Part shown: in pieces, positions 34,366 to 50,006 of the stretch | Layout: each line of letters opens with the position of its first letter | Position numbering within the stretch: position 1 is the first letter of the stretch | Program-made: the position numbers and the translations under genes | Notes under the pieces: generated by a model | Database searches by the model: none | Told to the model about the DNA's origin: nothing | What the model saw: the letters and a program-made list of their open reading frames with translations, nothing else | Source of the DNA: a virus | Lineage: Duplodnaviria > Caudoviricetes | Virus record (IMG/VR): IMGVR_UViG_3300023179_000027 | Coordinates: 1 to 64,000 of that record | Length of the DNA stretch: 64,000 bases | Direction: 5' to 3' (one strand)

Positions 34366-36189
34366 TTAAATCACTGTAATTTTGTTTTTTAACAATCCTA
34401 GTCTTCTAAATCTGTAATAATTCCAAGTTAATGATTTTGTTTTATGTAACTCTCTTGGAGCTACTTTAATATCAATATTTTTATCATATACTTCTGTCAA
34501 TGTGAAATCTGTATTAATAATTACAGGAAAGTCTAGTTTAGGATCATAAATGTAATATTTTTGCAATTCATATATATGGTCAGGGGTTTTAAAAAATTCA
34601 TTAGCAACATCTTTAGCCAAATCAAATATTAATTCTTTATTATCATATAAAAATTCATATGTTGAAGTATGTAAGGCATGTCCTCCACCTTGTATCTGTT
34701 TTCCATCTTTTTTAATTATACTGCCTGAACTCAAATACAATGCAGTTGCTTCTTTGAGTAAGTTAAATTGGTCCTTTATAAAGCTATTTTCTAATTTTGT
34801 AAATAATTTGTCATAAAATTGTCTATACGATACGTTGTGTTTTTCTCTCATATAACGTGCAAATACCTGTGTATAACCTGTAATATGAAATTGTATTATC
34901 ATCCATCCATACATGTATGCTTCAATAAAATCATCTGTTGTCATTGTACTAGTTTGATTTATCAAATTTATTTTTTCTTCTACCTCAGGATCCTCAGGAC
35001 ATTTATCTACATACATTGGCATATAATTTTTAAAATTTGTAGTAACACTTTTAATTCCATATTTAAGTTTTGAATTTAATGAATTTAACTCACTATTTTC
35101 TAGTAATTGTCCAAACCATTGTTCAATATTTTGGTGTTGACCCATTTCTAATATATCATTATATCCCTGTTTCCATGAATCCAGTGTTTCAAGTGGCATA
35201 CCCAATATTAATTCAGTATAGGTTATAACATCATATTTTTCACTTAATTTCATTAAAGTTTTAATGTTATTAATTTCCATGTTGGTTCTTTTGATTGCTT
35301 CTAATGTAGATTCATTCATACTTTGCATACTAATAGTAAGTCCCCTACTATAGGGACCTATTATTTTTGCTATTTCAAAATTTAATTCAGTAGAATTTTT
35401 TGCTGACTGCAAGTTTATACTGTCAACTGTTTTGCTTCTATCCGCTACATCCCTTAAAATTAGTGCAATTTGCCTATCACGTTCTTTAAAAATTCCGAAA
35501 TTTGCATCAGCACATATTATGTATCCAATTGGCTTATTTACAATCCATTCTAATTCATTTTTAATTTTTTCAATATCAAATTTTTTTACTTTACTATAAG
35601 TTACGCCTCCCCAATCACAAAACGTACAAGCATAAGGACATCCTCTATTAGTCTCAAATGTAAAGCTCCATAATGCTTTAGGATTTTCATCTATTATTTT
35701 GTCAAACACCCCTGTTGTATATGGACTGGGGATATCTAAATTATCTAATCTTTTCTTGTCATAAAATGTTTTTAATTTTTTATCTGATATGGTATCACGT
35801 AATATTTCTAAAAAGTTTTCTTCACCTTCTGCCATTACTATGCTGTCAATAAATTCATAGTTTAATAGTTTTCCACTAGCTTGCGGTCCACCAAAAATGA
35901 TTCTACAATTAGGAAATTTTTCCTTAATCATTTTTGCCATTTTTAAATTATATCTTTCATTCCAAATATAAGTGCTAAAACCACAAAGTGTAGGATTTTC
36001 TACTTTATTTAAAACTTCTATTGGATTATCTCTTGCATAAAATAAGTCTTTTAGGATAAAATTATCTTTAATGTCATCAAACTGATTAGCGTAAGACCAT
36101 ATGCATCCAGAACTATATGGTAACCAATAAGTATCTTCATTGTCGATTGTTACATTATGTTGTGGCTGAAAAAGATATAAATTTTTCAT
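34366..36189 (-). CDS. B12-binding-domain radical SAM protein
   Basis: GFSTYIWN, IIFGGP, EGE, ETNRGCPYACTFCDW. Confidence 0.9.
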   Translation of the reverse strand: MKNLYLFQPQHNVTIDNEDTYWLPYSSGCIWSYANQFDDIKDNFILKDLFYARDNPIEVLNKVENPTLCGFSTYIWNERYNLKMAKMIKEKFPNCRIIFGGPQASGKLLNYEFIDSIVMAEGEENFLEILRDTISDKKLKTFYDKKRLDNLDIPSPYTTGVFDKIIDENPKALWSFTFETNRGCPYACTFCDWGGVTYSKVKKFDIEKIKNELEWIVNKPIGYIICADANFGIFKERDRQIALILRDVADRSKTVDSINLQSAKNSTELNFEIAKIIGPYSRGLTISMQSMNESTLEAIKRTNMEINNIKTLMKLSEKYDVITYTELILGMPLETLDSWKQGYNDILEMGQHQNIEQWFGQLLENSELNSLNSKLKYGIKSVTTNFKNYMPMYVDKCPEDPEVEEKINLINQTSTMTTDDFIEAYMYGWMIIQFHITGYTQVFARYMREKHNVSYRQFYDKLFTKLENSFIKDQFNLLKEATALYLSSGSIIKKDGKQIQGGGHALHTSTYEFLYDNKELIFDLAKDVANEFFKTPDHIYELQKYYIYDPKLDFPVIINTDFTLTEVYDKNIDIKVAPRELHKTKSLTWNYYRFRRLGLLKNKITVI

Positions 36190-36194
36190 AAAAG

Positions 36195-37154
36195 TTATTT
36201 ATATTTGGGGATTTTACTATCCGCTGAACTAACGCATCTTTGAGTAATGCATTTTGTTGGGTGTTGAAATAAAATAAAATCTTTTAAAGTTCCCATTGGG
36301 ATGTCCTTACAACTATAACTACGTCTTACCTCATTCAATCTTATTACCAAACTTTGATACCCACTATTACAATTCCAATCTTTAAATTGATTAAAATTAA
36401 ATGCATTAAATCGTTCAGCCTGATCTATATAATAAACGTTATGTTGTTCATCATATAATTTTACTTGTAAAAGTTCTTTATCATTAATTTTTTGAGGTAA
36501 GCCTGATTTCATAATATTTATCATATCCTCTGTATACTCTGTAATTACATTACTAGCTGTTAAATCACTCTGTGGCTTAAGAGTAACGTTTATTCCTTGT
36601 TCACTAAATCTTAAACATCTTTCATAAAGTTCATAAAACAATTTTGGTACCATTACCTGATTTACAGTAACAAATACATTATTATTCATTAACCATAATA
36701 TTTTTTCTATAAATTCTGACTCAATTGCAAATTCATGATGAAAGCTTGCTGTCAAACTACGTCTAATAGAATTTTTAGTTAATTCAACATATTTGTTCCA
36801 ATACTGTAATCCTGGACTTAAGTTTGTTGTCATATGTATACTATCTCCATCTATTTCTTTTAACAAATAAAACAAATGTTTATAGGCTGTAGGTTCACCA
36901 CCGCTGAATGACCAATGGAATTTTGTAAATTTATTTTCTTTTGCCAAATGTTTAATTTTAGCTATAGTGTTTATGTATAAGTCTAATTCTTGATAATCGG
37001 GAATATCGGCATGTGCATATGGCCAACAGTAGGAACAATTATAATTACAAAATCGTCCTAATATCCAACTTATTGTAAATAAATCTGTATCAAGTAAAGT
37101 TTCTTGCCCAAATTTTATAATTTTATTAAATGGGATTTTCGTAAAATCTGTCAT
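36195..37154 (-). CDS. radical SAM protein with C-terminal Cys cluster
   Basis: CNYNCSYC, GGEP, CNSG..SC..C..C; related to 23289. Confidence 0.9.
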   Translation of the reverse strand: MTDFTKIPFNKIIKFGQETLLDTDLFTISWILGRFCNYNCSYCWPYAHADIPDYQELDLYINTIAKIKHLAKENKFTKFHWSFSGGEPTAYKHLFYLLKEIDGDSIHMTTNLSPGLQYWNKYVELTKNSIRRSLTASFHHEFAIESEFIEKILWLMNNNVFVTVNQVMVPKLFYELYERCLRFSEQGINVTLKPQSDLTASNVITEYTEDMINIMKSGLPQKINDKELLQVKLYDEQHNVYYIDQAERFNAFNFNQFKDWNCNSGYQSLVIRLNEVRRSYSCKDIPMGTLKDFILFQHPTKCITQRCVSSADSKIPKYK

Positions 37155-38688
37155 ATTGTTCTTTTAACCAATCATAGTCATTAATTAACATCAATTTTTC
37201 TTTATTATTTTTATTGGCTAAACCGTAAGACCTACCGTATAAAGCACCATCAATACAATATTTGCCAAATGGTTTATCAAGTCCTTTTGTACACCAAACG
37301 TGTAAACGTTCTGCTGTGTCTAAGGTATTTTGGTTATTTATTTGCTCACTTGCCAATTTACTACATTCTCTAAAAGCACTTCTCCATGTATTAAAGGAAT
37401 TAGTATTAAATTTAGTTATATTACTTAATTCATTTACTCGCTCATAAATTATTCCTAAACTTGTGGACATGTCAGGATCAGTTTTTTTTAACCTTGCTGT
37501 AATAGTCCTAGGTAAAAGTTTAACTGCACCATATCCATATTCTAGATCATTAATGCAATTTTTAGCTCTCCACACTCTTATTTTAGGTTGGTCATAAAAC
37601 GGCACTTTATAATCAAAATTAAATGAATCTAGTATTTCTGCATCTCCATCCACTACATAAAAATAATCTGTTTTACATAACATAGCAGCTTTTATATGAG
37701 CATTGTGTATGCCTTTTACTTTTTGAATACGCAGTGCTCTAGGAAATCTTTTTGTAAGATGTTTATAATTTTCATCAGCAAAGGTTTCATCGTAGTCTAT
37801 GAAAACAATGTCGTAAGGTATGTCATCAGGACAACGTAATATAGGTTTTACTTGGTGTTTATAATTAAAACTTTCATTTACAGAATAAACATCATCTACT
37901 ATATCTTTATCCAATAGTATGTTTATTTTATTACCTAATTCATTACATAATTCTAATAGATTAGTAGAATAATTTTTCATGTGAAATAATGAATTTAAAT
38001 AATCAAAATCGTGTAAATTTTTTAAATCAAAATTTATTAGGCTTTTATAAACTCCCAATCGAGCTCCATAAATTGCAAATAATCCATTTTCTACATCCGC
38101 TCCAATATGCATCCAGTTATATAATCTATCAAAATTTCTCCAGTCTAGGCTATTCAGGTCTGAAATAAGTTTTCCATTCTCAAGCAACAACTTGACTCCC
38201 TCACGAAAACCTGCACGCCATGCTTGTAAAGGACTTGAATTAATAATAATATCACTGGCAATATGGTTTAACTGTATATAATTACTTAAATCAAAATCTA
38301 CTAATGTACTTAAATCATTACTATTTTCATGTGTTTTCATCGTCCTAATAATTTTAAGAGGCCAACATTTTATACCACCGTTACCATACTGTTGTCCATT
38401 AATGATATTGTGTGCAGTAAAACTTACAACTTTATCATTATAATTGTTTACAAGATATTTTTGTTTATAAAAATCATCTCTAACAAAATTATCTCCATCT
38501 ACTATAATGACGTGGCTATCGCTAGGAAATAAGGCAGCAACTTTTTTATGTGCGGCGTCACTGCCTTTTATACCATGTACTCTTTTGGCCTTTGGACATA
38601 CTAATAATAAATTTTCAAAGTTTTTTTCACAGTTAGGTTCATCATAACTTAAAAATACAGTCTGATAATTATTGGGATCTAAAAACAT
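37126..38688 (-). CDS. protein with two tandem glycosyltransferase-A-like domains
   Basis: Internal duplication: FLSYDE..GIKG..VDGD..WRAGFRE and FIDYDE..KVKG..VDGD..WRSAFRE; DxD motif in each half. Confidence 0.65.
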   Translation of the reverse strand: MFLDPNNYQTVFLSYDEPNCEKNFENLLLVCPKAKRVHGIKGSDAAHKKVAALFPSDSHVIIVDGDNFVRDDFYKQKYLVNNYNDKVVSFTAHNIINGQQYGNGGIKCWPLKIIRTMKTHENSNDLSTLVDFDLSNYIQLNHIASDIIINSSPLQAWRAGFREGVKLLLENGKLISDLNSLDWRNFDRLYNWMHIGADVENGLFAIYGARLGVYKSLINFDLKNLHDFDYLNSLFHMKNYSTNLLELCNELGNKINILLDKDIVDDVYSVNESFNYKHQVKPILRCPDDIPYDIVFIDYDETFADENYKHLTKRFPRALRIQKVKGIHNAHIKAAMLCKTDYFYVVDGDAEILDSFNFDYKVPFYDQPKIRVWRAKNCINDLEYGYGAVKLLPRTITARLKKTDPDMSTSLGIIYERVNELSNITKFNTNSFNTWRSAFRECSKLASEQINNQNTLDTAERLHVWCTKGLDKPFGKYCIDGALYGRSYGLANKNNKEKLMLINDYDWLKEQYDRFYENPI

Positions 38689-38778
38689 TTATTATTTATA
38701 TTCATATTTTGGGAAAAAATAAACTTGTTTTTTATTTAAAAATACTATATTATTATGAATAGGAATAAATAAAATACT

Positions 38779-38904
38779 ATGATGAATACCTACTTGAAAA
38801 TAAATTTATGTCATTGGTTTAATGCCAATGAATCCTTTGCGCCAGTAAACTCATCAAGTATCCAGCGCACACAGTTAAATAGAGGATACCTGGGGATTAG
38901 GTAA
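38779..38904 (+). CDS. putative 41-aa leader (attenuator) peptide, not in ORF track
   Basis: MMNTYLKINLCHWFNANESFAPVNSSSIQRTQLNRGYLGIR*; follows TAAATA; stop lies 19 nt before a terminator. Confidence 0.6.
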   Translation: MMNTYLKINLCHWFNANESFAPVNSSSIQRTQLNRGYLGIR

Positions 38905-38923
38905 AACTAGAAAAGTTAAATCT

Positions 38924-38957
38924 AAACCCTGGGAAACTTAAAAACCCAGGGTTTTTT
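38924..38957 (+). terminator. intrinsic terminator (candidate attenuator)
   Basis: aaaccctggg / 11-nt loop / cccagggttt perfect 10-bp stem followed by a T-tract. Confidence 0.85.
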
Positions 38958-38976
38958 GTTTTATAATAGGAGAAAT

Positions 38977-39144
38977 ATGAAGGTTGACAGTAATTATGAA
39001 ATTGATGTAGAGTACGGTTTCTTTGATGAATTTGATTTTACAGAGCCATTAACAGAGGAACAGTACAGTATGCTTATTGAACGAAAGTTGAATATAGCGA
39101 AATTCTATCATACATTGGATCAGAATAGATTTAAAATATTATGA
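38977..39144 (+). CDS. small acidic hypothetical protein
   Basis: AGGAG RBS before ATG 38977. Confidence 0.65.
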   Translation: MKVDSNYEIDVEYGFFDEFDFTEPLTEEQYSMLIERKLNIAKFYHTLDQNRFKIL

Positions 39145-39145
39145 T

Positions 39146-39330
39146 AGTAGTGTATAAGGTAACGAGGGCCAAGAAACAGCACTATAAAATTGTTTCAAAC
39201 GGGCGGACAGTATACATGAAATTTGCGGAGGTAACGCACAAAGTAAGACTGCTGATTGGGGCATGACCCCAATATGCCGTGTTTAAACACGGCATTCTAA
39301 AATGTATCAAGATATATTTTGGAATGCCTG
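39146..39330 (+). ncRNA. unidentified structured RNA candidate
   Basis: Non-coding, GC-richer than flanks, five or more consecutive hairpins. Confidence 0.5.
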
Positions 39331-39353
39331 TTTATCTAGTAAATATAATCAGT

Positions 39354-39428
39354 TGGAGGTTCGCCAAGTGGTAAGGCCCCGGATTTTGATTCCGGTATGC
39401 ATAGGTTCGAATCCTATACCTCCTGCCA
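39354..39428 (+). tRNA. trnQ: tRNA-Gln(TTG)
   Basis: Cloverleaf, ccgga-ttTTGat-tccgg, GTTCGAA, CCA. Confidence 0.95.
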
Positions 39429-39431
39429 AAT

Positions 39432-39506
39432 GCTGATGTAGATCAGTGGTAGATCGCTTTCTTGGTAAGAAAGAAGTCGTGAGTTCAAATCTCGCCATCA
39501 GCACCA
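39432..39506 (+). tRNA. trnT: tRNA-Thr(GGT)
   Basis: ctttc-ttGGTaa-gaaag, CCA. Confidence 0.95.
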
Positions 39507-39518
39507 AACAAATTAACC

Positions 39519-40742
39519 ATGTATAATAGATTTGACATTATAGACTTTCAAGTGATTTATGATAAATGGATGGCTAATACCAACCCATTTAATGTTTACA
39601 TACACAGCCCCTTTTGTCAGTCAATTTGTAAGTTTTGTATCTATAAAGGGTTGAAGTACAACAATACTTTATTTGAACAATACTACGATCATTACCTACC
39701 TAAGGTAGTTGATATGTACAGTAACATTTTAGATACTAAAACTAATTTAATTACTAGTTGGTTTTTTGGTGGTGGTACACCGTCATTAATGACAGCTAGT
39801 ATGGCAGATATGTTATTTGATTCTTTACCAAACTTTGCTAATCATCCTAGTGAAAAGGTTTTTGAAATACACCCTGGTGCATACACTGTTGAACTTTTAG
39901 ATGTGCTTAAAAAATACAATTTTACAACTGTAATCATTTGCCAACAAACATTTGATATAGGCACATTAAAACGTCAAAATAGAACTGTATCAGGTATTGA
40001 TACATGTAAAAAGTTGTTTAAGGAGTGCAGAAAACGTGGATTTAAAATAGGATTAGACTTAATAGCTTTTTTAAATCAGCAACCGACTGACATACAAATC
40101 CTACAAAATGATTTAGATATTGTCAGTCAACTTAAACCTGATGAAATTAGTGTACAAACTTTGTATCAGCGTAAAGATTTGACAAGAATGGTTTTGGATT
40201 CTATCTTTAATCATAAACTCATCAAACACTATACTCCTGAATGGGCTGATAAATTGTCAAAAGATGATTTACTTGTTATCAATCAACAATTAAAATGTTT
40301 TAGGTTATTTAATAATAAGACACCTAAAAACAATGAATTTTATAGTTTTACTGGTAATATGGATCCGAATTGGCAAATTTTAAACAATCAATTACAAACA
40401 CTAGCTATTGGTTCTTATAAGAACCAATTGACACAAACACATTCAAACATTAGTGGTTTTAATTACTTTGAGACAAATATTAATAATATTGATCCAGTAT
40501 TTAAGTTTGTCACAAATGACCTAGAGCAAGAAAAGTTATATGTACAAAATGTTCTTAAAGAAGCAAACATTGTTAAATCTGTAGACGATATTGTTTATAG
40601 TCATAGTTTTATCTATGCAAGAGAGATACCTATTATGTTAGATTTTAGTGTACGTAATCTAAATGAACAAGAAGTAGATAATATTATAAAAAAGATACAT
40701 AATAAAAAAAGAATGATGTTAAAAAAATTTAAGGAGAATTAA
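39519..40742 (+). CDS. HemN/HemW-like radical SAM protein
   Basis: YIHSPFCQSICKFC, FGGGTPS. Confidence 0.85.
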   Translation: MYNRFDIIDFQVIYDKWMANTNPFNVYIHSPFCQSICKFCIYKGLKYNNTLFEQYYDHYLPKVVDMYSNILDTKTNLITSWFFGGGTPSLMTASMADMLFDSLPNFANHPSEKVFEIHPGAYTVELLDVLKKYNFTTVIICQQTFDIGTLKRQNRTVSGIDTCKKLFKECRKRGFKIGLDLIAFLNQQPTDIQILQNDLDIVSQLKPDEISVQTLYQRKDLTRMVLDSIFNHKLIKHYTPEWADKLSKDDLLVINQQLKCFRLFNNKTPKNNEFYSFTGNMDPNWQILNNQLQTLAIGSYKNQLTQTHSNISGFNYFETNINNIDPVFKFVTNDLEQEKLYVQNVLKEANIVKSVDDIVYSHSFIYAREIPIMLDFSVRNLNEQEVDNIIKKIHNKKRMMLKKFKEN

Positions 40743-40892
40743 ATGTACAAATATAAATTATGGGTAAAAATAAATGATTTTCAAACTGCCGAAACGATTG
40801 TTTATGCAAATAATGACTTTGAAGCAAAAATGTTAGGTGAAGCACAATATGGTCAAGGTAATGTATTAAATTACACAAGACTATCAGATTAA
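40743..40892 (+). CDS. small hypothetical protein (49 aa, not in ORF track)
   Basis: AAGGAG RBS; MYKYKLWVKINDFQTAETIVYANNDFEAKMLGEAQYG... Confidence 0.7.
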   Translation: MYKYKLWVKINDFQTAETIVYANNDFEAKMLGEAQYGQGNVLNYTRLSD

Positions 40893-40900
40893 AATACAAC

Positions 40901-40975
40901 TCCAGATTAGCTCAGTGGTAGAGCACTGTTTTGATAAAGCAGGGGTCGGTGGATCATTCCCACCATCTGGAACCA
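40901..40975 (+). tRNA. trnI: tRNA-Ile(GAT), atypical T-loop
   Basis: ctgtt-ttGATaa-agcag; T-loop ATCATTC; CCA. Confidence 0.9.
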
Positions 40976-40979
40976 ATAT

Positions 40980-41055
40980 GCCTCTTAAGCTAATCTAGTG
41001 AAAGCGCTGGTCTGAAGAACCAGATAGTCAGGAGCGTAACCTGGAGGAGGCCCCA
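40980..41055 (+). tRNA. trnF: tRNA-Phe(GAA), atypical D- and T-loops
   Basis: ctggt-ctGAAga-accag; T-loop AGCGTAA; CCA. Confidence 0.85.
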
Positions 41056-41056
41056 T

Positions 41057-41329
41057 TTAATTTTCATCTTTGACTTTACCCCAACCTGATTTGGCACGTA
41101 TAGCAAATGCAAGTTCACGCATACGACCGTATTCAGGACTACCTTTTTTATGAGGGCCACTTGATTTTAGTTGGTTATAGCTTTTTAGTAATTCTTGTTT
41201 AGATTTACCCTTGTACTTACCTTTTTCTTCAGGACTTACTACAGTAGGCTTGCCCCATTTCTCATTGATTTGTGTAACAGCTTCATTTATTATGTTTAAA
41301 TATCTACGTAGTAGATCTGGGTTATGCAT
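41057..41329 (-). CDS. small basic protein, possible capsid-internal protein
   Basis: AGGAG RBS and TAAATA upstream; N-terminal IINE/QINE resemble T4-type prohead protease sites (inference). Confidence 0.6.
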   Translation of the reverse strand: MHNPDLLRRYLNIINEAVTQINEKWGKPTVVSPEEKGKYKGKSKQELLKSYNQLKSSGPHKKGSPEYGRMRELAFAIRAKSGWGKVKDEN

Positions 41330-41385
41330 AATTACTCCTTTGTAAATATGTATATGTATTTAATAATAAAAAGGTGTACTTAAGT

Positions 41386-41817
41386 ATGAAACTTGACAAA
41401 ACATTGCTGAAAAATGTTTGTGTTATCGCTAATTTTGATAAACCAAAAAAGAATTTACAATTGGTACAAGAATTGTTTAGGTTGATGAATAAAGAACAAG
41501 GTATAGGATTAGCAGCGAACCAAGCAGGAGTTAATTTGCGTGTTTTTGTTATGTTAGTAAATGATAAACCTTACCATTGTTTTAATCCTAAAATATTAGA
41601 ATATGGTAACGAAAAAGTATCATTCAATGAAGGATGTTTAAGTTTCCCAAATGAACGTTGTGAAATTATTAGACCAGATAGAATACAAGTTAAATATCAT
41701 AGTGCATATGGTGTTGAAACTATTGAGTGGTTAGATGGGCTAGCCAGTCGTTGTTTTCAGCATGAGTTAGACCATTTAAATGGATTAACGATGCATGACA
41801 GAATTACGCCCCGGTGA
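41386..41817 (+). CDS. def: peptide deformylase
   Basis: GIGLAANQAG, EGCLS, QHELDHLNG; short C-terminus. Confidence 0.95.
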   Translation: MKLDKTLLKNVCVIANFDKPKKNLQLVQELFRLMNKEQGIGLAANQAGVNLRVFVMLVNDKPYHCFNPKILEYGNEKVSFNEGCLSFPNERCEIIRPDRIQVKYHSAYGVETIEWLDGLASRCFQHELDHLNGLTMHDRITPR

Positions 41818-41884
41818 CGGAATTGGCATACGTGCATGACTTAGGATCATGATTTTAGGAGTTCGACTCTCCTCTGGGGCACCA
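41808..41884 (+). tRNA. trnL: tRNA-Leu(TAG), short variable arm
   Basis: catga-ctTAGga-tcatg; 77 nt; CCA; overlaps def stop. Confidence 0.9.
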
Positions 41885-41900
41885 AATAACAGGATTTTGA

Positions 41901-42533
41901 ATGGCAAATGGAATTTATAAAATAACTGAAGAATTTGAGAAAGCTATTTCAGATTATACTGGTGCACCTTATGCTATTACAGTTGATAATCAAAGTAACG
42001 CATTATTTTTGGCATTAATGTACATTGGTGTAAAAGATCAAACAATTACTATTCCAAGCAGAACTTATCCTAGTGTTCCTTGCGAAATCATTCATGCAGG
42101 GGCTAAAGTAAAATTTAGTCCTGTAGAAGGAAAAACTATTAAAGGTGCATATCGTTTAGAACCTACACCAGTTTGGGACAGTGCTTTACGCTTTACTTGT
42201 GACATGTATATACCTAAACAGTATATGTGTTTAAGTTTTACTGGCCCATACAAACACTTTAAGTTAAGTAAAGGTGGTTGTATACTAACTGATAATTATG
42301 AGGCAATGTTATGGTTTAAACGTGCTAGATTTAGTGGTCGTCGTGAGTGTAGTTATCATGAGGATCATTTTGACATGTTAGGTTGGAATTTTTACATGAT
42401 GCCTGAATTAGCAGCACGTGGGTTATTATTGATGAATCAGTTTTATAATTCTAGTGATGGCAGCAAAAAACATAATGAAGATATAGAACATGCTTATCCT
42501 GATTTAAGCAAGTTTGAGGTTTACAAAAAATGA
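41901..42533 (+). CDS. DegT/DnrJ/EryC1/StrS-family PLP aminotransferase (short form)
   Basis: YAITVDNQSNAL, WDSA, SFTGPYKHF..KGG, GWNFYM. Confidence 0.8.
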   Translation: MANGIYKITEEFEKAISDYTGAPYAITVDNQSNALFLALMYIGVKDQTITIPSRTYPSVPCEIIHAGAKVKFSPVEGKTIKGAYRLEPTPVWDSALRFTCDMYIPKQYMCLSFTGPYKHFKLSKGGCILTDNYEAMLWFKRARFSGRRECSYHEDHFDMLGWNFYMMPELAARGLLLMNQFYNSSDGSKKHNEDIEHAYPDLSKFEVYKK

Positions 42534-43129
42534 AGTATATTGTTTTTGGTTCGGGTGGATTTGCAAAAGAGGTTATAGGTTACATAGAAAGTGATAATCA
42601 TGAAATCGTTGCAGTTGTGAGTACACAGCCTTTTAATTGTGAAAGTTATAACAAATATAAAGTTTATGAAAAATTAGACAAAGGTATGTTTCCTGATGCA
42701 AAATTTATAATGGCTGTAGGTGATATTAATATTAAAAAAATATTTGTAGAACAAAATGAAAACCGTTGGGGAAATTTTATTCATAGTTCATGTCATGTTT
42801 CTAATCATGCGAAATTAGGTAACGGAATCGTAATGTGTCCTTTTAGTTCTATATTAGGAGATGCCATAGTAGGAGATTTTGTAACATTTAATGTATATTC
42901 ATGCGTTGCACACGATAATAAAATAGGTGATTACGTTACTTTTAGTCCACATTGTGGTACAATGGGTAATTGTGAAATAGGCAATGAATGTTTTTTTGGT
43001 ACTGCTGCCTATTGCATACCAAAAGTAAAATTAGCAGATAAAATTAAAGTTAGTGCTGGATCAATGGTAAGACATTCATATTCAAGCGAATGTACACTTT
43101 TAGGTAATCCCGCTAAACCTCGTACTTAA
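42530..43129 (+). CDS. sugar O/N-acetyltransferase, NeuD/PglD family
   Basis: FGSGGFAKEV, hexapeptide repeats, VAHD, GNPAKP. Confidence 0.9.
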   Translation: MKYIVFGSGGFAKEVIGYIESDNHEIVAVVSTQPFNCESYNKYKVYEKLDKGMFPDAKFIMAVGDINIKKIFVEQNENRWGNFIHSSCHVSNHAKLGNGIVMCPFSSILGDAIVGDFVTFNVYSCVAHDNKIGDYVTFSPHCGTMGNCEIGNECFFGTAAYCIPKVKLADKIKVSAGSMVRHSYSSECTLLGNPAKPRT

Positions 43130-43130
43130 T

Positions 43131-44480
43131 ATGATTATTCCTAGTTTAGAATCACTTAATATTGTTGAAAATATTGCTATTACGATGAAAGAAAAAACTT
43201 TTCATCATCATTATCATTTACTATTGGATATAGCAAATACTTATCCAAAAGATTATAGACTTACTTATTTAGAAATAGGAGCATATGCGGGAGGATCTGC
43301 TTGTTTAATGATGCATAGACCACATACTGATGTTATTAGTATAGATTTAGGTTGGCCTATAGATCCTGAAATTGTATTAAAAAATGTTTGGCAATTTAAT
43401 AAACATCAAAATTCCTATAGCTATATAAAAGGTGACTCAAAATCTGATGATGTAAAAAATAGAGTTAAAAATGTAAAGGCAGATATTTTGTTTATTGACG
43501 GTGATCATAGTTATATGGGTGTTTGGAACGATTTTTTAAATTACAGGCATCTTGTTAATAATGGTGGCTATATAGTTTTTGATGATTACAATGATCATAT
43601 GCATAGTCCAATGGTAAAATCAGCAGTTGATCATATTTGTAACTTAATTACAGATGATTTTGAAATCATTGGAACATTTAGTAATATATTTAATGCAAAA
43701 GGCGACACAAATGAAGCTAAAGACGGTAATTGTTTTGTAATAAGAAAAAAAGATAAATTACCTGGATTTGATATTCCTATTGCAATCTGTATAGCAACTT
43801 ATTATAAAGAAGATGGATCAACAATAAAATTATTAGAAAAAACGTTAGATAGTGTTTTTAATCAAACTTATAAAAATTTTAAAGTATTTTTGTATGGAGA
43901 TCATTATACTAAAGAAGACCAAGTGGTAGAACTTATTAAAAAATATCCTAGTGATAAAATAATTTTTAAGAATATACCTTATGCTAGAGAACGTCAGCTT
44001 CATAAAGATAAAAAAACTCTTTGGAAGTATGGTGGAGTTAATACGGTTAATAAAGCTATAGATTATGCTATAGACTGTGGGTATTCATATGTTGCACGTT
44101 TAGATCATGACGATTTATGGGAGAACAATCATTTACAAGAAATCGTTAATTGTGTTGAAATTACCGGAGCAGATTTTATTTGTACAAGGGCAAAGCATGT
44201 AACAGGATTTACATTGCCTATTATTTTTGAAACTCTAGAAAAATATGTTAAATTTTATCCAATTTATAACCAAATCGTTCATTCTAGTGTATGTATGAAT
44301 TTTGCAAAGATCCCGTTACGTTATAGAGATTTGTGGCTTGATAATGGTTCCATAGATAGCAAAACATTGCCTGGTGATGGTGATATGTGGGAACGTTGTC
44401 GCAAATACATGATAAGTAATAGTTTACGCAGTGTATGTATTAATAAAGTTACATGCATTCATGACACGGAGACAACTTGA
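43131..44480 (+). CDS. methyltransferase - family 2 glycosyltransferase fusion
   Basis: LEIGAYAGGS, LFIDGDHSY, VFDDY; then IATY..SVFNQTY..LDHDD. Confidence 0.88.
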   Translation: MIIPSLESLNIVENIAITMKEKTFHHHYHLLLDIANTYPKDYRLTYLEIGAYAGGSACLMMHRPHTDVISIDLGWPIDPEIVLKNVWQFNKHQNSYSYIKGDSKSDDVKNRVKNVKADILFIDGDHSYMGVWNDFLNYRHLVNNGGYIVFDDYNDHMHSPMVKSAVDHICNLITDDFEIIGTFSNIFNAKGDTNEAKDGNCFVIRKKDKLPGFDIPIAICIATYYKEDGSTIKLLEKTLDSVFNQTYKNFKVFLYGDHYTKEDQVVELIKKYPSDKIIFKNIPYARERQLHKDKKTLWKYGGVNTVNKAIDYAIDCGYSYVARLDHDDLWENNHLQEIVNCVEITGADFICTRAKHVTGFTLPIIFETLEKYVKFYPIYNQIVHSSVCMNFAKIPLRYRDLWLDNGSIDSKTLPGDGDMWERCRKYMISNSLRSVCINKVTCIHDTETT

Positions 44481-45259
44481 ATAAAATACCTGTGATCGGT
44501 ACAGCTATTGTTAATACTGTAAGTTGGTTAGAAAAACTTATTGCCAGTGTAAATTATCCAACTGAAAATTTTGTTATTATTAATAATAATGGGCGTGGAC
44601 AATTAACCGATGATATTAATTCATTGTGTAATAAACCACATCCTTATATACAAAACTTTCATCCTGTACATTTGCCACGTAATATTGGATGTTCTGGAGC
44701 TTGGAATTTAATTATTAAGTTGTTTATGAATAGTCCATATTGGATTATAACAAATCACGATGTTGAATTTACTGAAGGTTTTTTAGATAAAATGGTAAGT
44801 TTAGCGAGTGACCCAATCTATGGTATGGTGCATGGACATGGTGGGCCTACAAGTTTTATGGGTGGCTATAGTTTATTTTTAATACGTGATTGGGTTGTGC
44901 GAGATTTTGGTTTATTTGATGAGAACTTTTATCCTGGTTATGCAGAAGATACTGATTATGAAATGCGTTTTTTGATAAAGCCTATTAAACGTCATTTATC
45001 AGTAGGAATACCATATAAGCATGGTGGCACTTTTGAGTATGGGATAAGCGGGTCACAAACATGGCGCCAAGATATGACATTAAAAGACAAAATTGATCAT
45101 GGTCGTTATATAAATGAGTTAGAGTATATGACTAAAAAATGGGGACCAAATTGGAGAAATTGTCAACCATGGGAGTTCCCATTTAATATACAAGGCAATC
45201 CTATTAGTGCTACCAGTTATGATTTAAGTTTTGTTCGACGAAAAAATTTAGGATTCTAA
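44477..45259 (+). CDS. family 2 glycosyltransferase-like protein
   Basis: NIGCSGAWN, NHDV, GLFDENFYPGYAEDTDY. Confidence 0.82.
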   Translation: MNKIPVIGTAIVNTVSWLEKLIASVNYPTENFVIINNNGRGQLTDDINSLCNKPHPYIQNFHPVHLPRNIGCSGAWNLIIKLFMNSPYWIITNHDVEFTEGFLDKMVSLASDPIYGMVHGHGGPTSFMGGYSLFLIRDWVVRDFGLFDENFYPGYAEDTDYEMRFLIKPIKRHLSVGIPYKHGGTFEYGISGSQTWRQDMTLKDKIDHGRYINELEYMTKKWGPNWRNCQPWEFPFNIQGNPISATSYDLSFVRRKNLGF

Positions 45260-45263
45260 ATAC

Positions 45264-45289
45264 AAAGGTTAGTTTACTAACCTTTTTTT
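45264..45289 (+). terminator. intrinsic terminator
   Basis: aaaggttag-ttta-ctaaccttt plus T-tract. Confidence 0.75.
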
Positions 45290-45317
45290 ATTGCTGGAAA
45301 ATCAAAAAGGAGATATT

Positions 45318-45485
45318 ATGAAGCAATTAGTATTTGAAAACATTATTAATGGTGAAAAGTATGTATGTCCAGCAAAATCTGAGACAAGAACCATTGATGG
45401 GATAGATTACATTAGAGTTTTTAAAATGGGCACTAATCGAGAAGTCCTTATAAGAAAGGACACATTACGTAAGGTAAAACAATAG
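45318..45485 (+). CDS. small hypothetical protein
   Basis: AAGGAG RBS before ATG 45318. Confidence 0.7.
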   Translation: MKQLVFENIINGEKYVCPAKSETRTIDGIDYIRVFKMGTNREVLIRKDTLRKVKQ

Positions 45486-45494
45486 GAGGTTAAA

Positions 45495-46055
45495 ATGTCA
45501 GTACTAGCCCTTGACGTTACAGGAATTCCAAGACAGTGGATCAGCTATGATAATGCTATAACATATCATGCTAAAAAAGCAGTTTCTTGGACAATGGGTG
45601 ACATTGTGGCTAGATACCGCGGTGGTCATCAGAAAACTGGTGAACTTAGTTACATTGAAACTACTAGCATTATAGCTATAAAAGGCCATGGATTCGATCC
45701 ATATAAACATGGTAGAGTATCATTAAGCAATCGTACCTTGTTTGGACGAGATCGAAACACTTGTGCTTATTGTGGAAAGCATTTCGCTAATCATAATCAA
45801 TTAAGCCGTGATCACATTGTCCCAAAAAGTAAAGGTGGCAAAAACGAATGGATGAATGTAGTTACTGCATGTAAAAAATGTAATAGCGAAAAAGGTAATC
45901 ATACTTTGAAAGAAGCTAGAATGGAAATATTGTATGTGCCATATGTTCCAAATCATTTTGAAAACATGATATTGCAAAATCGCAATATCCTAACAGACCA
46001 AATGAATTATTTATTAGCTGGAATACCTAAACATAGTAGGTTAATTTTGTCTTAA
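45495..46055 (+). CDS. HNH endonuclease (McrA-like)
   Basis: RDRNTCAYCG, DHIVPKSKGG, WMNVVTACKKCN..KG. Confidence 0.92.
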   Translation: MSVLALDVTGIPRQWISYDNAITYHAKKAVSWTMGDIVARYRGGHQKTGELSYIETTSIIAIKGHGFDPYKHGRVSLSNRTLFGRDRNTCAYCGKHFANHNQLSRDHIVPKSKGGKNEWMNVVTACKKCNSEKGNHTLKEARMEILYVPYVPNHFENMILQNRNILTDQMNYLLAGIPKHSRLILS

Positions 46056-46083
46056 AAATATATACAAACTTCTGACAAAAAAC

Positions 46084-46112
46084 TTGACAAAAAACCTGTC
46101 TTAGTGTATTAT
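46084..46112 (+). promoter_or_regulatory. sigma70-type promoter for tRNA block
   Basis: TTGACA-17-TATTAT with TG extension. Confidence 0.8.
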
Positions 46113-46128
46113 CTGTAAATAGATTAAC

Positions 46129-46204
46129 GCTGCATTAGCTCATTCGGTAGAGCAACTGCCTTGTAAGCAGTAGGTGCCCAGTTCGAATCCGGGATGCAGC
46201 ACCA
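46129..46204 (+). tRNA. trnT: tRNA-Thr(TGT)
   Basis: actgc-ctTGTaa-gcagt, CCA. Confidence 0.95.
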
Positions 46205-46210
46205 AGCTAT

Positions 46211-46286
46211 TCACCGATAGCTCAGTTGGTAGAGCGCCGGACTGTTAATCCGTCGGTCCCTGGTTCGAGCCCAGGTCGGTGAGCCA
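46211..46286 (+). tRNA. trnN: tRNA-Asn(GTT)
   Basis: cgga-ctGTTaa-tccg, CCA. Confidence 0.95.
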
Positions 46287-46297
46287 AGGTTCGTATT

Positions 46298-46374
46298 CTG
46301 ACCGTAGCTCAGTAGGATAGAGCAATGGATTTCTAATCCATTGGTCGGGGGTTCGAATCCCTCCGGTCAGGCCA
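46298..46374 (+). tRNA. trnR: tRNA-Arg(TCT)
   Basis: atgga-ttTCTaa-tccat, CCA. Confidence 0.95.
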
Positions 46375-46388
46375 TTATTATATACTAT

Positions 46389-47036
46389 ATGTTTACAATT
46401 TACAATTTATTTTATACCCCAGTCATAAAAGTTAAAGTTAATCCAACTTCTTTTGATAAAAAGACTATTCTTAATACAGTAATTAAAAATTACAGGAAAC
46501 AACCATTTCGTAATAAGCATGATACTCAAAGTAAATTACACCATTATTATAATGATTGGGATAATGAAAAATTTGATAAGGTAGATTTAAGTAGTTTGGT
46601 TAATGTTTATGATGAGATTTTTAAAAATTTAGTTTCAAACATTCCTAACAAAGCACCTATCTCTTATCAATTTGAAATTGAAAACATTACAGTTATGAAG
46701 AATAAGAGCAATGATTTTAAAAAACATAATCATTTAAATGGAAATATATATTTTGCTTGTGTACACTATATTAGTGTTGGAAAAAATAGTGCGCCATTAA
46801 GACTCCATAATCCTTTACCTTTATATGATTATCTTCCTAAGGAGTTAAATACATTAAGGGATAGCAAATTCGATATTAAAAACCCATTTCATAGCTTAGT
46901 TTGTAGTCATTATGATATAATTGTAGAAGAAGATGATATGATAATTATACCTAGTTTTCTTTTACATAGTGTTTCACAAGAAGAAAACGATACCAAACAT
47001 AGAGTTGCTATTGCTACAAATTTAAGTTTAATGTAA
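46389..47036 (+). CDS. putative 2OG-Fe(II) oxygenase
   Basis: HNH..FACVHY...EDDMIIIPSFLLHSV..RVAIATN; ATG 46389 (track start lies inside a tRNA). Confidence 0.75.
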   Translation: MFTIYNLFYTPVIKVKVNPTSFDKKTILNTVIKNYRKQPFRNKHDTQSKLHHYYNDWDNEKFDKVDLSSLVNVYDEIFKNLVSNIPNKAPISYQFEIENITVMKNKSNDFKKHNHLNGNIYFACVHYISVGKNSAPLRLHNPLPLYDYLPKELNTLRDSKFDIKNPFHSLVCSHYDIIVEEDDMIIIPSFLLHSVSQEENDTKHRVAIATNLSLM

Positions 47037-47045
47037 TTAATATTT

Positions 47046-47123
47046 CTCGGATTAGTTCAGTTTGGTTAGAATGCCTGCTTTGGGAGCAGGAGGTCGTGAG
47101 TTCGAATCCCACATCCGAGACCA
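47046..47123 (+). tRNA. trnP: tRNA-Pro(TGG)
   Basis: cctgc-ttTGGga-gcagg, CCA. Confidence 0.95.
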
Positions 47124-47130
47124 AATATTT

Positions 47131-47206
47131 GGACGTTTAGCTCAGTTGGTAGAGCGGTGCCCTTACAAGGCATAGGTCGGCAGTTCGAACCTGTCATCGT
47201 CCACCA
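47131..47206 (+). tRNA. trnV: tRNA-Val(TAC)
   Basis: gtgcc-ctTACaa-ggcat, CCA. Confidence 0.95.
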
Positions 47207-47211
47207 AATTT

Positions 47212-47784
47212 ATGCAGAAAATATCAGACCTTATAACAGTTGTTGACAATTTTGTAGACAAGAGTTTTTGTAAAAAAACCTACAATTTTTTATTAGGTAA
47301 GACAAATTGTCCTTATTATAATGATAACAATATGCCATGGTTCATTGGAAACAATGTTTTTTATTATAATATTGATAACAAAGCTCTTAATAAAAAAGTA
47401 ATTGAAATAAACTACAGTGTAGCAGAGTTGTTAACAACTATCCACAAGGTACAAGTTTATCCACATTTTTGTGATTTAGTACTATGGCGTGAAGGGCAAA
47501 GCATGGAGAGACATGTAGATGATGGCTCCAACTCTAATAATAGAGAAGATTTAAATATGCGTAAATATTCTGCAATTTTATATCTTAATGATGATTATAT
47601 TGGGGGTAAAACTTTTATCAAAGTTACAAATGAAACTGATTACTTTTCTGTTCCAAAGACAGGAACATTGGTTATGTTTACAGGAGACTCTAGGTCTGCT
47701 CATGGAGTAACTAAAATAGAAAAGGGTAACAGGGGAACTATTGCAATGTGGTTTTGCACTGATAAGCAGTTTTGCCAAATGTAG
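47212..47784 (+). CDS. prolyl 4-hydroxylase-like 2OG-Fe(II) oxygenase
   Basis: HVD, SAILYLNDDYIGG, HGVTKIEKGNR. Confidence 0.9.
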   Translation: MQKISDLITVVDNFVDKSFCKKTYNFLLGKTNCPYYNDNNMPWFIGNNVFYYNIDNKALNKKVIEINYSVAELLTTIHKVQVYPHFCDLVLWREGQSMERHVDDGSNSNNREDLNMRKYSAILYLNDDYIGGKTFIKVTNETDYFSVPKTGTLVMFTGDSRSAHGVTKIEKGNRGTIAMWFCTDKQFCQM

Positions 47785-47794
47785 CAATTAAAAT

Positions 47795-47823
47795 TTGACA
47801 ATAAATTGTAGTTCGTATATAAT
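47795..47823 (+). promoter_or_regulatory. sigma70-type promoter
   Basis: TTGACA-17-TATAAT perfect consensus. Confidence 0.9.
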
Positions 47824-47872
47824 GCTTGTATTCTGTAGTAAACGATCTTTAAAAGTTGAAGTACAAAGTTTT

Positions 47873-47958
47873 GCCCGTATGGTGAAATCGGTAGACACAA
47901 GGGACTTAAAATCCCTCGCTTAACAGGCGTGCTGGTTCGAGTCCGGCTACGGGCACCA
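47873..47958 (+). tRNA. trnL: tRNA-Leu(TAA)
   Basis: aggga-ctTAAaa-tccct, long variable arm, CCA. Confidence 0.95.
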
Positions 47959-47964
47959 TTTTTG

Positions 47965-48232
47965 AAGTATCCCCGGCCCTACGCCGGTCAGTAAGTAGGC
48001 GGTTGGACTTACGTTAGTAGTCTAGGTTAGCTCAACGACCTCCCTTCGGGCCTTTCATCCGGTGTGGTAAATGTTGAGATGTGATTGGCCTTCAGACGAA
48101 CAGGCACGGACAGGGTAACAACTCAAGTTGGGGCTTGTGGGAACAAGTAGCCGACACTATATTCAAGCACATTAAGCAGATGTAAGTCGTCCGTTTAGGC
48201 GCAGTTGTAAGTCTTAGTGTGTTTCAATATGA
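47965..48232 (+). ncRNA. unidentified structured RNA(s)
   Basis: About 270 nt, GC-rich, no ORF; pseudoknot-capable hairpin and an 18-position stem. Confidence 0.55.
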
Positions 48233-48253
48233 TGAAAGTATAAGTTAAATATT

Positions 48254-48715
48254 ATGAAAAAATTGAATATTCCTGTAACAATGTTAGGTCCTGCGAGGCA
48301 GTGTGGTACTTGTACTGCATGTTGTGAAGGTTGGTTAGAAGGTGAAGCATACGGGTATAACTTTTTTTCAGGAAAAATGTGTCACTATAAAGGCGAAAAC
48401 AATTGTACTATTTATAAAAATCGCCCTGAAGAACCTTGTAAAACTTATAAGTGCGAATGGTTAGTAAACCATAGTATACCAGAATGGATGAAGCCTAGCT
48501 TATCAAAGGTTATCATAACTAAACGTCTAAAAAAAGGTATAACTTATCTTGAAGTTATAGAAGCAGGGCAAAAAATAGATAGCACTGTATTAAATTGGCT
48601 TTTCGTAGAGCATTTAAAGGGTACTATTCCTAATCTTGCATACAAAGTAAACAATGGTCAAAATTATTTAGGAAGTCAAGATTTCATAGAGATGGTACAG
48701 CAGGTTGACAATTAA
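48254..48715 (+). CDS. Cys-rich YkgJ-like (CxxCxxCC) metal-binding protein
   Basis: CGTCTACC, CTIYKNRPEEPCKTYKCEW. Confidence 0.75.
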   Translation: MKKLNIPVTMLGPARQCGTCTACCEGWLEGEAYGYNFFSGKMCHYKGENNCTIYKNRPEEPCKTYKCEWLVNHSIPEWMKPSLSKVIITKRLKKGITYLEVIEAGQKIDSTVLNWLFVEHLKGTIPNLAYKVNNGQNYLGSQDFIEMVQQVDN

Positions 48716-48733
48716 TCAGTCATCACATATAAT
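48705..48733 (+). promoter_or_regulatory. sigma70-type promoter for main tRNA block
   Basis: TTGACA-17-TATAAT. Confidence 0.9.
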
Positions 48734-48801
48734 GCTTGTATTGAATGACTTGTACGCAAGTTAACACTTAAATGTTCATTAACAATTGATGTACACATTT
48801 T

Positions 48802-48876
48802 GCACCGTTCGACTATCGGTTAGGTCGTTACCCTTTCAAGGTAAAAAGATGGGTTCGACTCCCATACGGTGTACCA
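48802..48876 (+). tRNA. trnE: tRNA-Glu(TTC)
   Basis: ttacc-ctTTCaa-ggtaa, CCA. Confidence 0.95.
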
Positions 48877-48933
48877 TTTTTATTTATTTTAATGAGTAAA
48901 GTTGCCAGTAAAACATATAAAATAATTATAAAT

Positions 48934-49008
48934 GCGGGTATAGCTCAGAGGAAGAGCAAATGGCTTTTAACCATTAGGTCGTAGGTTCGATCCCTGCTAC
49001 CCGTACCA
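48934..49008 (+). tRNA. trnK: tRNA-Lys(TTT)
   Basis: aatgg-ctTTTaa-ccatt, CCA. Confidence 0.95.
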
Positions 49009-49014
49009 AACAAA

Positions 49015-49102
49015 GGGTGTTGCCCCCGTCGGCGGACTGTAAATCCGTTACTCTAAGAGATGGGAAGTTGAGTTCGTGGAGCGTTACCATCAACACCCAC
49101 CA
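49015..49102 (+). tRNA. trnY: aberrant tRNA-Tyr(GTA)-like RNA lacking a D-arm
   Basis: gggtgttg/caacaccc acceptor, gcgga-ctGTAaa-tccgt, ACCA end. Confidence 0.75.
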
Positions 49103-49108
49103 AACAAT

Positions 49109-49182
49109 CGCGGGTTGTAGAAATGGCATCTAACCAGTCTCATAAGCTGGAGTTGGGGGTTCGACTCCCTCACCCGCAACCA
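49109..49182 (+). tRNA. trnM: tRNA-Met(CAT), initiator-like acceptor
   Basis: C1:A72 mismatch, ccagt-ctCATaa-gctgg, CCA. Confidence 0.9.
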
Positions 49183-49272
49183 AGATGCACAGTCTCGCTT
49201 TACGCTGTGGCAGGATGGCCTCTCAGACTGCGACTAGAGTCCTACTTGCAAGGTTGGACATAGCACAAATTT

Positions 49273-49347
49273 GGTTCCATAGTATAGTGGTAAGTATAGG
49301 GCACTGTCACTGCCCAGGCAGGAGTTCAATTCTCCTTGGGACCGCCA
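49273..49347 (+). tRNA. trnD: tRNA-Asp(GTC)
   Basis: gggca-ctGTCac-tgccc, GCCA. Confidence 0.95.
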
Positions 49348-49439
49348 AACACAGTCGCCAGGATAGGGCGACAACATAGGGAGGGCAGCGGAGTACGCTA
49401 GGCTCTTAAACGACAGCAACTATGCGTCCCGTAGCATTT

Positions 49440-49531
49440 GGAGAGTTGCCCGAGAGGCCGAAGGGAGCGGTTTGCTAAACCGTCGAACGTAGAAATATGT
49501 TCCGTGGGTTCGAATCCCACACTCTCTACCA
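49440..49531 (+). tRNA. trnS: tRNA-Ser(GCT)
   Basis: gcggt-ttGCTaa-accgt, long variable arm, CCA. Confidence 0.95.
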
Positions 49532-49536
49532 GTAAT

Positions 49537-49610
49537 GTCTCAGTGGTGTAATGGTAGCATGACAGTCTCCAAAACTGTTCGTGGGGGTTCGAATCCCTCC
49601 TGAGACGCCA
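49537..49610 (+). tRNA. trnW: tRNA-Trp(CCA)
   Basis: acagt-ctCCAaa-actgt, CCA. Confidence 0.95.
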
Positions 49611-49628
49611 CTTTTAGGTAATATAACT

Positions 49629-49719
49629 GGAAGCGCAAACCGACTGGCGACGGTACCTGTCTTGAAAACAGTTGAGCGTTAATAACGCCTTGGGGGTTCA
49701 ACTCCGCCCGCTTCCGCCA
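49629..49719 (+). tRNA. trnS: tRNA-Ser(TGA)
   Basis: ctgt-ctTGAaa-acag, long variable arm, CCA. Confidence 0.92.
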
Positions 49720-49725
49720 ATCAAT

Positions 49726-49801: not shown

Positions 49802-49808
49802 GTTTAAT

Positions 49809-49885: not shown

Positions 49886-49891
49886 AATTAT

Positions 49892-49969: not shown

Positions 49970-50006
49970 AAATATTATTTACTATATCACAGATTGTAAA
50001 TACAAT

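Follow-up and report, generated by a model that had tools for sequence, protein, structure and literature searches.

In the attenuators of enterobacterial amino acid operons (trp, his, leu, thr, phe and ilv), a translated leader is followed by an intrinsic terminator, and the position of the ribosome on the leader picks the helix that forms. T-box leader RNAs bind one uncharged tRNA directly and need no ribosome. The attenuators known to us sense one or a few amino acids and serve biosynthetic operons only, and to our knowledge essentially nothing is known about how phage tRNA genes are regulated. Here we describe a candidate attenuator with a different input and a different target, which is situated at the entrance to the tRNA region of a Caudoviricetes genome fragment (positions 1 to 64,000 of IMG/VR virus record IMGVR_UViG_3300023179_000027; this whole stretch of 64,000 nucleotides (nt) is called the window). 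A cellular tRNA array, the trn operon of Anabaena sp. PCC 7120, is reported to be induced by translational stress (PMC8421152) and to be controlled by the repressor TrcR (PMC10272220).

The source record contains 130,630 bases and is rated 37% complete, which makes it a fragment of a jumbo phage. Within the window there is only one element in which a short open reading frame (ORF) is followed by a terminator of this kind, and it is found immediately upstream of a tRNA region, divergent from a gene for a 520-amino-acid (aa) protein. The GC content of the leader and hairpin region is 38-39%, compared with 16-30% in its surroundings. No Rfam family was found for the element at E ≤ 1 (38700-39000, in a search that spanned 36000-56000). 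Its parts are the following:

38765-38771, + strand: promoter-like ATAAATA motif, 7 nt before the AUG, with a putative promoter role.
38779-38904, + strand: leader ORF of 41 codons with 19 of the 20 amino acids, 31 distinct codons and the stop codon TAA at 38902-38904.
38889-38902, + strand: 5' strand of the predicted antiterminator, formed by the last leader codons and pairing with 38920-38933.
38920-38933, + strand: 3' strand of the predicted antiterminator, which includes the terminator 5' arm (38924-38933).
38924-38957, + strand: intrinsic terminator with a 10-bp stem, an 11-nt loop and T6.

An initial annotation, made from the letters of the window, had described this ORF with its 41 codons, 19 amino acids (Asp missing) and 31 distinct codons, followed by a strong terminator and by a helix that competes with it. 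The ORF and its counts were reproduced, the terminator at 38924-38957 was confirmed (−15.4 to −15.9 kcal/mol), and the competing helix was recovered in the same register but three pairs longer (38889-38933).

We propose, with a probability of roughly 60%, that the element is a ribosome-dependent (leader-peptide) transcription attenuator which gauges general decoding capacity at the head of the phage tRNA region. Such an element would probably raise tRNA output when ribosomes decode slowly. In this model, the promoter directly upstream would yield an mRNA that starts at the AUG or within a few bases of it, and a ribosome would then read a 41-codon leader that represents nearly every amino acid by one or a few codons and samples separate Leu, Ser, Arg and Ile boxes. 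A ribosome that reaches the stop codon would cover 38889-38902, so that the terminator at 38924-38957 could fold and transcription would end. If any aminoacyl-tRNA were scarce, the ribosome would stall earlier and leave 38889-38902 free to pair with the emerging terminator 5' arm; once this antiterminator had formed, RNA polymerase would continue into a small ORF (ORF55), a structured non-coding RNA (ncRNA) and the first tRNA genes. The readout would be overall decoding capacity instead of one amino acid, and it would provide feedback on the phage's own tRNA supply. Translation of the leader, the start point of its mRNA, the kinetics and the physiological trigger are the parts of this model that we infer.

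Comparison of related sequences establishes the ORF and its all-amino-acid make-up, the terminator and the helix that competes with it, and the location ahead of tRNA arrays. With a 407-aa radical SAM neighbour as the anchor, no related loci were found, and the 520-aa neighbour led to 80 IMG/VR loci, among which L002 is the sole syntenic one. A 16-base word from a conserved block at 39142-39330, which encodes the ncRNA, gave 64 further loci, of which 58 contain this block by nhmmer; six others (L094, L095, L097, L104, L108 and L130) were rejected as chance matches in which nhmmer found no ncRNA. A recognisable copy of the ORF-hairpin region is present in 36 loci, counting L002, and the other loci have a small ORF and a hairpin at the same place that have diverged beyond recognition at the DNA level. 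After removal of duplicates, of a leader cut by a contig end (L114) and of one fused into the ncRNA by a deletion (L115), both left out before peptides were counted, the comparison set contained 40 distinct leaders including the window's own, and counts out of 40 below refer to this set. L143 and L085 have less than 100 nt of upstream sequence, L109 was trimmed to the family start Met, and L115 and L091 were omitted when the ratio of nonsynonymous to synonymous substitution rates (dN/dS) was calculated. A profile search of 5.8 billion proteins provided a second set of 93 small ‘hypothetical’ proteins. Judged by these sequences, the same leader and terminator design is kept in ~130 related phage sequences. 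A blastn search with 38600-39350 gave no match among 50,697 phage records, and no cultured carrier is known.

The property that sets these leaders apart is their coverage of the amino acids. All 20 amino acids are present in 33 of the 40 leaders, 19 in six and 18 in one, and 90 of the 93 homologues in the second set also contain all 20. From 767 long background ORFs of the same phages, in which a complete set of 20 has a chance of 0.8% at a length of 38 residues, 3.1% at 45 and 9.7% at 55, only 1.96 such leaders would be expected among 40. Even draws from the leaders' own pooled composition reached all 20 in only 2% of cases at length 45, and therefore the signal is that each sequence holds each rare residue. 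When leaders were grouped at 50% identity, seven of 11 clusters consisted entirely of all-20 leaders (0.51 expected), and none of 2,000,000 simulations gave seven or more. Exactly one Cys and exactly one Trp are found in 38 of 40 leaders, and neither of these residues, nor His, is absent from any leader, while a Poisson model with the same means predicts 12-14 leaders without each of these residues. The single Cys is spread over at least 10 alignment columns, and loss of the usual Cys or Trp is accompanied by a new one at another place in that peptide (L103, L120, L107 and L137 are examples). As a control for selection bias, the best small ORF of a random 810-nt segment contained all 20 amino acids in 3.5% of cases (2922 segments, with true leaders counted). 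What is conserved, as far as these sequences tell, is coverage, and the peptide sequence drifts.

Separate codon boxes are covered as well. Both Leu boxes are used in 38 of 40 leaders (30.0 expected), both Arg boxes in 34 (23.1 expected), both Ser boxes in 39 (35.9 expected) and Ile ATA plus ATY in 36 (24.5 expected); an internal Met is present in 39, and the mean number of distinct codons per leader is 35.55, compared with 32.71 ± 0.31 expected. The window's leader was also compared with a background of 1979 41-codon windows taken from 56 long ORFs of the 64-kb window, in which at least 19 amino acids occur in 4.9% and at least 31 distinct codons in 0.9%. The GC content at third codon positions is 0.44 or higher in 0.6% of these background windows (mean 0.19), and the leader uses 21 of the 23 phage tRNA anticodon species, a number that is reached or exceeded in 1.5% of background windows (mean 16.8). 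A regulatory run of codons for one amino acid, as found in a classical attenuator, is absent. The initial annotation had expected conservation of the ORF and codon diversity in excess of background; the frame is open in every relative, and the diversity is far above background and conserved while the peptide drifts.

The terminator is the second conserved part of this design. In the window, its 5' arm occupies 38924-38933, its 3' arm 38945-38954 and its T6 run 38952-38957, with a predicted free energy (ΔG) of −15.4 to −15.9 kcal/mol; it was missed in a consensus scan because the loop limit of that scan was 8. A hairpin is present in all 40 relatives. In the 40-sequence alignment, 97.8% of stem cells are paired and seven of the 10 pairs have changed on both sides, a level of covariation that was matched by none of 500 shuffles and by no slid register. 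The hairpin begins 19 nt past the leader stop in the window; in relatives, the C-rich core begins 21-32 nt past the stop and the longest predicted hairpin, often with flanking A:T pairs added, begins 6-30 nt past it. Li et al. (PMC4824070) report that a terminator needs 10-15 nt of free RNA, and that a ribosome at a stop codon represses a terminator at a distance of a few bases but not at one of 28 bp. The 19-nt gap in the window and the spacing in relatives are consistent with these values. The T-run is weak (TTT only) in two of 40 relatives. L088, L123, L093/L127 and L126/L138 keep the hairpin sequence with just three T ahead of the ncRNA, so efficient termination is unlikely there. The sequence of the hairpin loop is unusually conserved across the main family.

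The end of the ORF, in turn, contains a partner for the terminator 5' arm, to which it is complementary in 38 of 40 leaders. In the window, the antiterminator hairpin at 38889-38933 (ΔG −18.1 kcal/mol) is the minimum-energy fold of the free RNA, and the fold z-score is −2.2. Within the ORF, the strongest partner of the 5' arm is located −40 to 0 nt from the stop codon in 39 of 40 loci, with a mean z of −2.66 relative to shuffles and p ≤ 0.05 in 29 of 40. The flanks of the C-run covary with the bases after the G-run in at least six variants, such as GAAGCCCC with GGGGCTTC, AGAACCC with GGGTTCT, and GAGACCC with GGGTCTC. As MAFFT had placed the partner one column off between subgroups (A2, A4), duplex energies with controls were used in place of a column-wise count: the last 60 nt of the ORF bind the 5' arm at a mean of −14.9 kcal/mol, compared with −10.7 kcal/mol for the reversed arm, −9.6 kcal/mol for the 3' arm and −5.5 kcal/mol for the first 63 nt of the ORF. 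Swapping partners across loci is only a moderate test, and a fraction of 0.30-0.34 of foreign pairs bind as well as native ones because the C-run core is shared.

Predicted folds of the nascent RNA, taken before the 3' arm has emerged, respond to the position of a masking ribosome. The 5' arm is paired upstream in all 40 loci, both in free RNA and with a mid-ORF stall, and a ribosome placed at the stop lowers this pairing below 0.5 in 21 of 40. For the window, the corresponding pairing values are 0.88 when free, 0.86 when stalled and 0.46 at the stop. With the ribosome mask at codon 20 or 30, the predicted fold is the antiterminator, and with the mask at codon 35 or at the stop it is the terminator. 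The attenuator reading of the initial annotation thus gains support from a terminator and an antiterminator that are both kept with compensatory changes. An additional hairpin had been claimed as well:

38858-38889, + strand: extra hairpin GTATCC/GGATAC, which abuts the antiterminator and forms in one ribosome-masked fold only.

Its two arms do exist at 38858-38863 and 38884-38889, but they pair only in that single masked case; the free-RNA fold has a different hairpin, at 38831-38888, in its place, and GTATCC/GGATAC is mismatched in L002. Neither of these hairpins competes with the antiterminator.

The genes that such a switch could reach are set out below, together with the divergent neighbour:

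38977-39144, + strand: ORF55, 55 aa with an L-T-x-E-Q...L-I-E-x-K-L core, an optional insert between the terminator and the ncRNA.
38984-39013, + strand: sigma70-like TTGACA-18-TAGAGT site, inside the 5' end of ORF55.
39142-39330, + strand: conserved structured ncRNA, the first RNA gene downstream.
39354-39506, + strand: first tRNA genes, Gln-UUG and Thr-GGU, in a region that continues to 53495.
37126-38688, − strand: divergent neighbour of 520 aa, with no Pfam family.

In each of the 43 segments that extend 600 nt or more downstream, a same-strand tRNA array directly follows the ncRNA, and a tRNA was found upstream of the element in one segment only. In relatives, too, the element always stands at the 5' entrance of a same-strand array, the position that the initial annotation had pointed out in the window. 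A small ORF of the ORF55 type, for which Pfam and PHROG gave no match, is present in 34 of 40 loci (L002 included) and absent in six; in the latter, the hairpin adjoins the ncRNA (−13 to +21 nt) and leaves no promoter space, therefore the ncRNA and tRNAs in these loci are reachable by read-through only. Among the sequencing runs compared with the window (X19, X18, X20 and X2), X18 and X20 are probably DNA, and one relative's contig in these two skips 38960-39190, which corresponds to the form without ORF55.

Further into the tRNA region, three sigma70 consensus promoters (46084-46112, 47795-47823 and 48705-48733; two score 12/12 and one 11/12) precede later tRNA blocks, and a 9-bp hairpin with a T-run forms a terminator-like site at 45264-45285. 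These are the sites that the initial annotation had cited as a limit on the reach of the element, and all of them were found again; the tRNA region is therefore split into several transcription units, and the element in the window could control no more than a first block of ORF55, the ncRNA, about five tRNAs, a radical SAM gene and def.

An alternative that we regard as unlikely accepts a translation sensor but assigns it another output, such as control of ORF55 or the ncRNA only, stability or processing of the downstream RNA, or a trans-acting leader RNA or peptide. The invariable first neighbour of the element is indeed the ncRNA and not a tRNA, the sigma70-like site past the terminator could drive the tRNAs alone in 22 of 34 loci, and some positions of the peptide are conserved; trans-acting leader RNAs and peptides have also been reported for Sinorhizobium trpL (PMC7968998, PMC7298713). 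Nevertheless, this alternative has to accommodate the six of 40 loci in which the ncRNA and tRNA array come straight after the hairpin with no space for a promoter, the 43 of 43 segments in which tRNA arrays start right after the ncRNA on the same strand, and the separate coverage of codon boxes, which is most sensible if tRNA supply is what is being read.

The other alternatives concern the nature of the ORF itself. The leader frame, of 38-59 codons, is uninterrupted in each of the 40 distinct relatives, and the remaining two forward frames carry 2-9 stops across the leader span in relatives. Between the two closest sequences, indels of 6, 3 and 3 nt all leave the reading frame intact, as do the start and the stop column, and third positions are where the conserved block differs. 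Pairwise differences at codon positions 1, 2 and 3 are 0.389, 0.319 and 0.457, so the third position is the most variable. The median dN/dS of the leader is ~0.5, and K-H, W and S-I-R positions are conserved in its peptide. TAAATA followed by an AUG 3-8 nt on is present in 30 of 40 relatives, and seven others have TTGACN-17-TACAAT ending 6-10 nt ahead of the AUG. Because no Shine-Dalgarno sequence was found between the promoter-like motif and the AUG, the mRNA would be leaderless or near-leaderless, and we regard the leader message as probably leaderless.

These data could also describe a conventional gene for a small trans-acting protein, equipped with a promoter and a terminator of its own, whose proximity to tRNA genes reflects synteny only. 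A conserved ORF with a promoter-like motif and a terminator, some purifying selection and a few conserved residues is what such a gene would look like; we consider it quite improbable, since it leaves unexplained why all 20 amino acids are present in 33 of 40 and 90 of 93 sequences with a single Cys and a single Trp that relocate, and why the 3' end of the ORF copies the terminator 3' arm with covarying flanks. Moreover, no Pfam or PHROG family matched the 41-aa product, and AlphaFold2 with 40 sequences gave a mean predicted local distance difference test (pLDDT) score of 59, a predicted template modelling (pTM) score of 0.13 and no secondary structure. A precursor of a ribosomally synthesized and post-translationally modified peptide, acted on by the neighbouring radical SAM genes, was considered and set aside; these genes are on the other strand and were not encountered beside the leader in most relatives (no systematic test was made). 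A ribosome-arrest peptide, suggested by a resemblance only, was likewise considered and set aside. Last, an untranslated structured small RNA with an incidental open frame is very improbable: it would account for a GC content above the surroundings, the fold z-score of −2.2, the missing Shine-Dalgarno sequence and a G-run conserved as nucleotides in different codon phases, but indels have not closed the frame in any relative (those in the closest pair are multiples of three), the other frames are closed, the codon-position pattern and all-20 coverage would be meaningless for a non-coding RNA, and Rfam gave no match to the element.

Several observations count against the attenuator reading. In equilibrium folds of the full-length free transcript, the terminator is preferred in 31 of 40 loci and only nine behave like a switch, therefore the model needs kinetic, co-transcriptional control, as in classical attenuators. 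The 5' arm is still paired under the stop-codon mask in 19 of 40 loci, and in the longer subfamily its partner, at −40 to −21 nt relative to the stop, would not be covered by a ribosome that has halted on the stop codon. The window's own leader is without Asp, and seven of 40 leaders are without one or two residues. As leaders share ancestry, per-sequence p-values are overstated, and the cluster test and the residue relocations are the sounder evidence. The conserved K-H, W and S-I-R positions and a dN/dS of ~0.5 could reflect a function of the peptide, and initiation would have to rest on a leaderless start. A TTGACA-17/18-TAnnnT site is present in 22 of the 34 loci that have the ORF55 gap, the window included, and the site at 38984-39013 may be a second entry that bypasses the attenuator. 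The later promoters and the site at 45264 also mean that the element is not the sole gate of the tRNA region and would act on its first block only. In RNA-labelled runs, coverage falls only on tRNA-like stretches at 39348-39517 and is uninformative on leader expression.

Some features of the surrounding genes deserve mention in their own right. The TTGACA-17/18-TAnnnT site is conserved at the nucleotide level; it is inside ORF55 in the window and ahead of the ORF55 start codon in most relatives, and a putative promoter at 38984-39013 would yield transcripts that lack the ORF55 start in the window. For the ncRNA, RNAalifold on 41 sequences predicted 32 pairs, of which 23 have changed on either side, and Rfam gave no match at E ≤ 1 save a weak one to RsmY. 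Its 3' end is a long stem (39291-39328 in the window), which encloses a variable insert in relatives. A two-piece tmRNA was considered for this locus, and none was found by ARAGORN or Rfam. In L115 (~5405-5620), a deletion joins the leader ORF, just past the G-run, to the ncRNA core; it takes out the terminator together with the 5' part of the ncRNA, and the ORF continues for 70 codons. From 39354 to 53495, ARAGORN called 23 tRNA genes, all of them on the + strand, and Rfam added two weaker tRNA matches in the window, at 40980-41052 (38.2 bits) and 50417-50509 (25.5 bits, tRNA-Sec model), neither with an ARAGORN call; L140, the closest relative, has a tRNA-Phe(GAA) at the position equivalent to 40980-41052. 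Relatives of the 520-aa neighbour are encoded on ~80 IMG/VR contigs, and its only cultured relative is a hypothetical protein of the Ralstonia jumbo phage RsoM2USA (39.6% identity, two places).

If the attenuator reading is taken one step further, the element could be a universal decoding gauge of freshwater jumbo phages, in which a leaderless message samples every amino acid and most isoacceptor classes and a shortfall in charged tRNA raises transcription of the ncRNA and tRNAs. We offer this extension tentatively, as something slightly short of an even bet. The shortfall could arise from host shut-off, codon mismatch or an anticodon-nuclease defence; for the last of these, and for read-through that depends on stalling, both raised in the initial annotation, the link is one that we infer. 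If this is correct, no attenuator described before would read every tRNA simultaneously, and a virus that autoregulates its tRNA supply would be known for the first time; a leader selected for every amino acid would amount to a general sensor of translation capacity. It would also provide a mechanistic connection between phage tRNA arrays and host tRNA depletion or tRNA-cleaving defences, with the strictly linked ncRNA as a candidate player in the same response. The logic is simple enough that it can be tested in a cell-free coupled system, and it could be reused as a synthetic reporter of translation stress. Full-text literature searches found no published account of a leader with all amino acids or of phage tRNA genes under attenuation; the class of mechanism is known, and, as far as we searched, neither the pan-amino-acid leader nor its target genes have been described before.

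Placed beside the systems with which we began, the phage element has most of its parts in common with the enterobacterial attenuators, namely a short leader ORF, a terminator, and an antiterminator that shares the terminator 5' arm and overlaps the end of the leader. It differs from them in that its leader has no run of codons for a single amino acid but about one of each of the 20, with separate boxes sampled, in that the genes behind it encode an ncRNA and tRNAs instead of biosynthetic enzymes, and in that its mRNA is apparently leaderless. In addition, no upstream 1:2 pause hairpin has been established, therefore untranslated RNA would be expected to read through, unlike that of the enterobacterial attenuators, which would terminate. 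As with T-box leaders, we propose a cis-acting terminator/antiterminator switch that reads the status of tRNA, but no Rfam covariance model, that of the T-box included, matched 38700-39000 at E ≤ 1. Among published concepts, that of the Anabaena trn array comes closest: control there is reported to be exerted by a ribbon-helix-helix repressor at the promoter of a cellular array, unlike the phage element, and yet both concern horizontally spread, supernumerary tRNA genes that are, or in the phage are proposed to be, switched on when translation is impaired (PMC8421152; PMC10272220).

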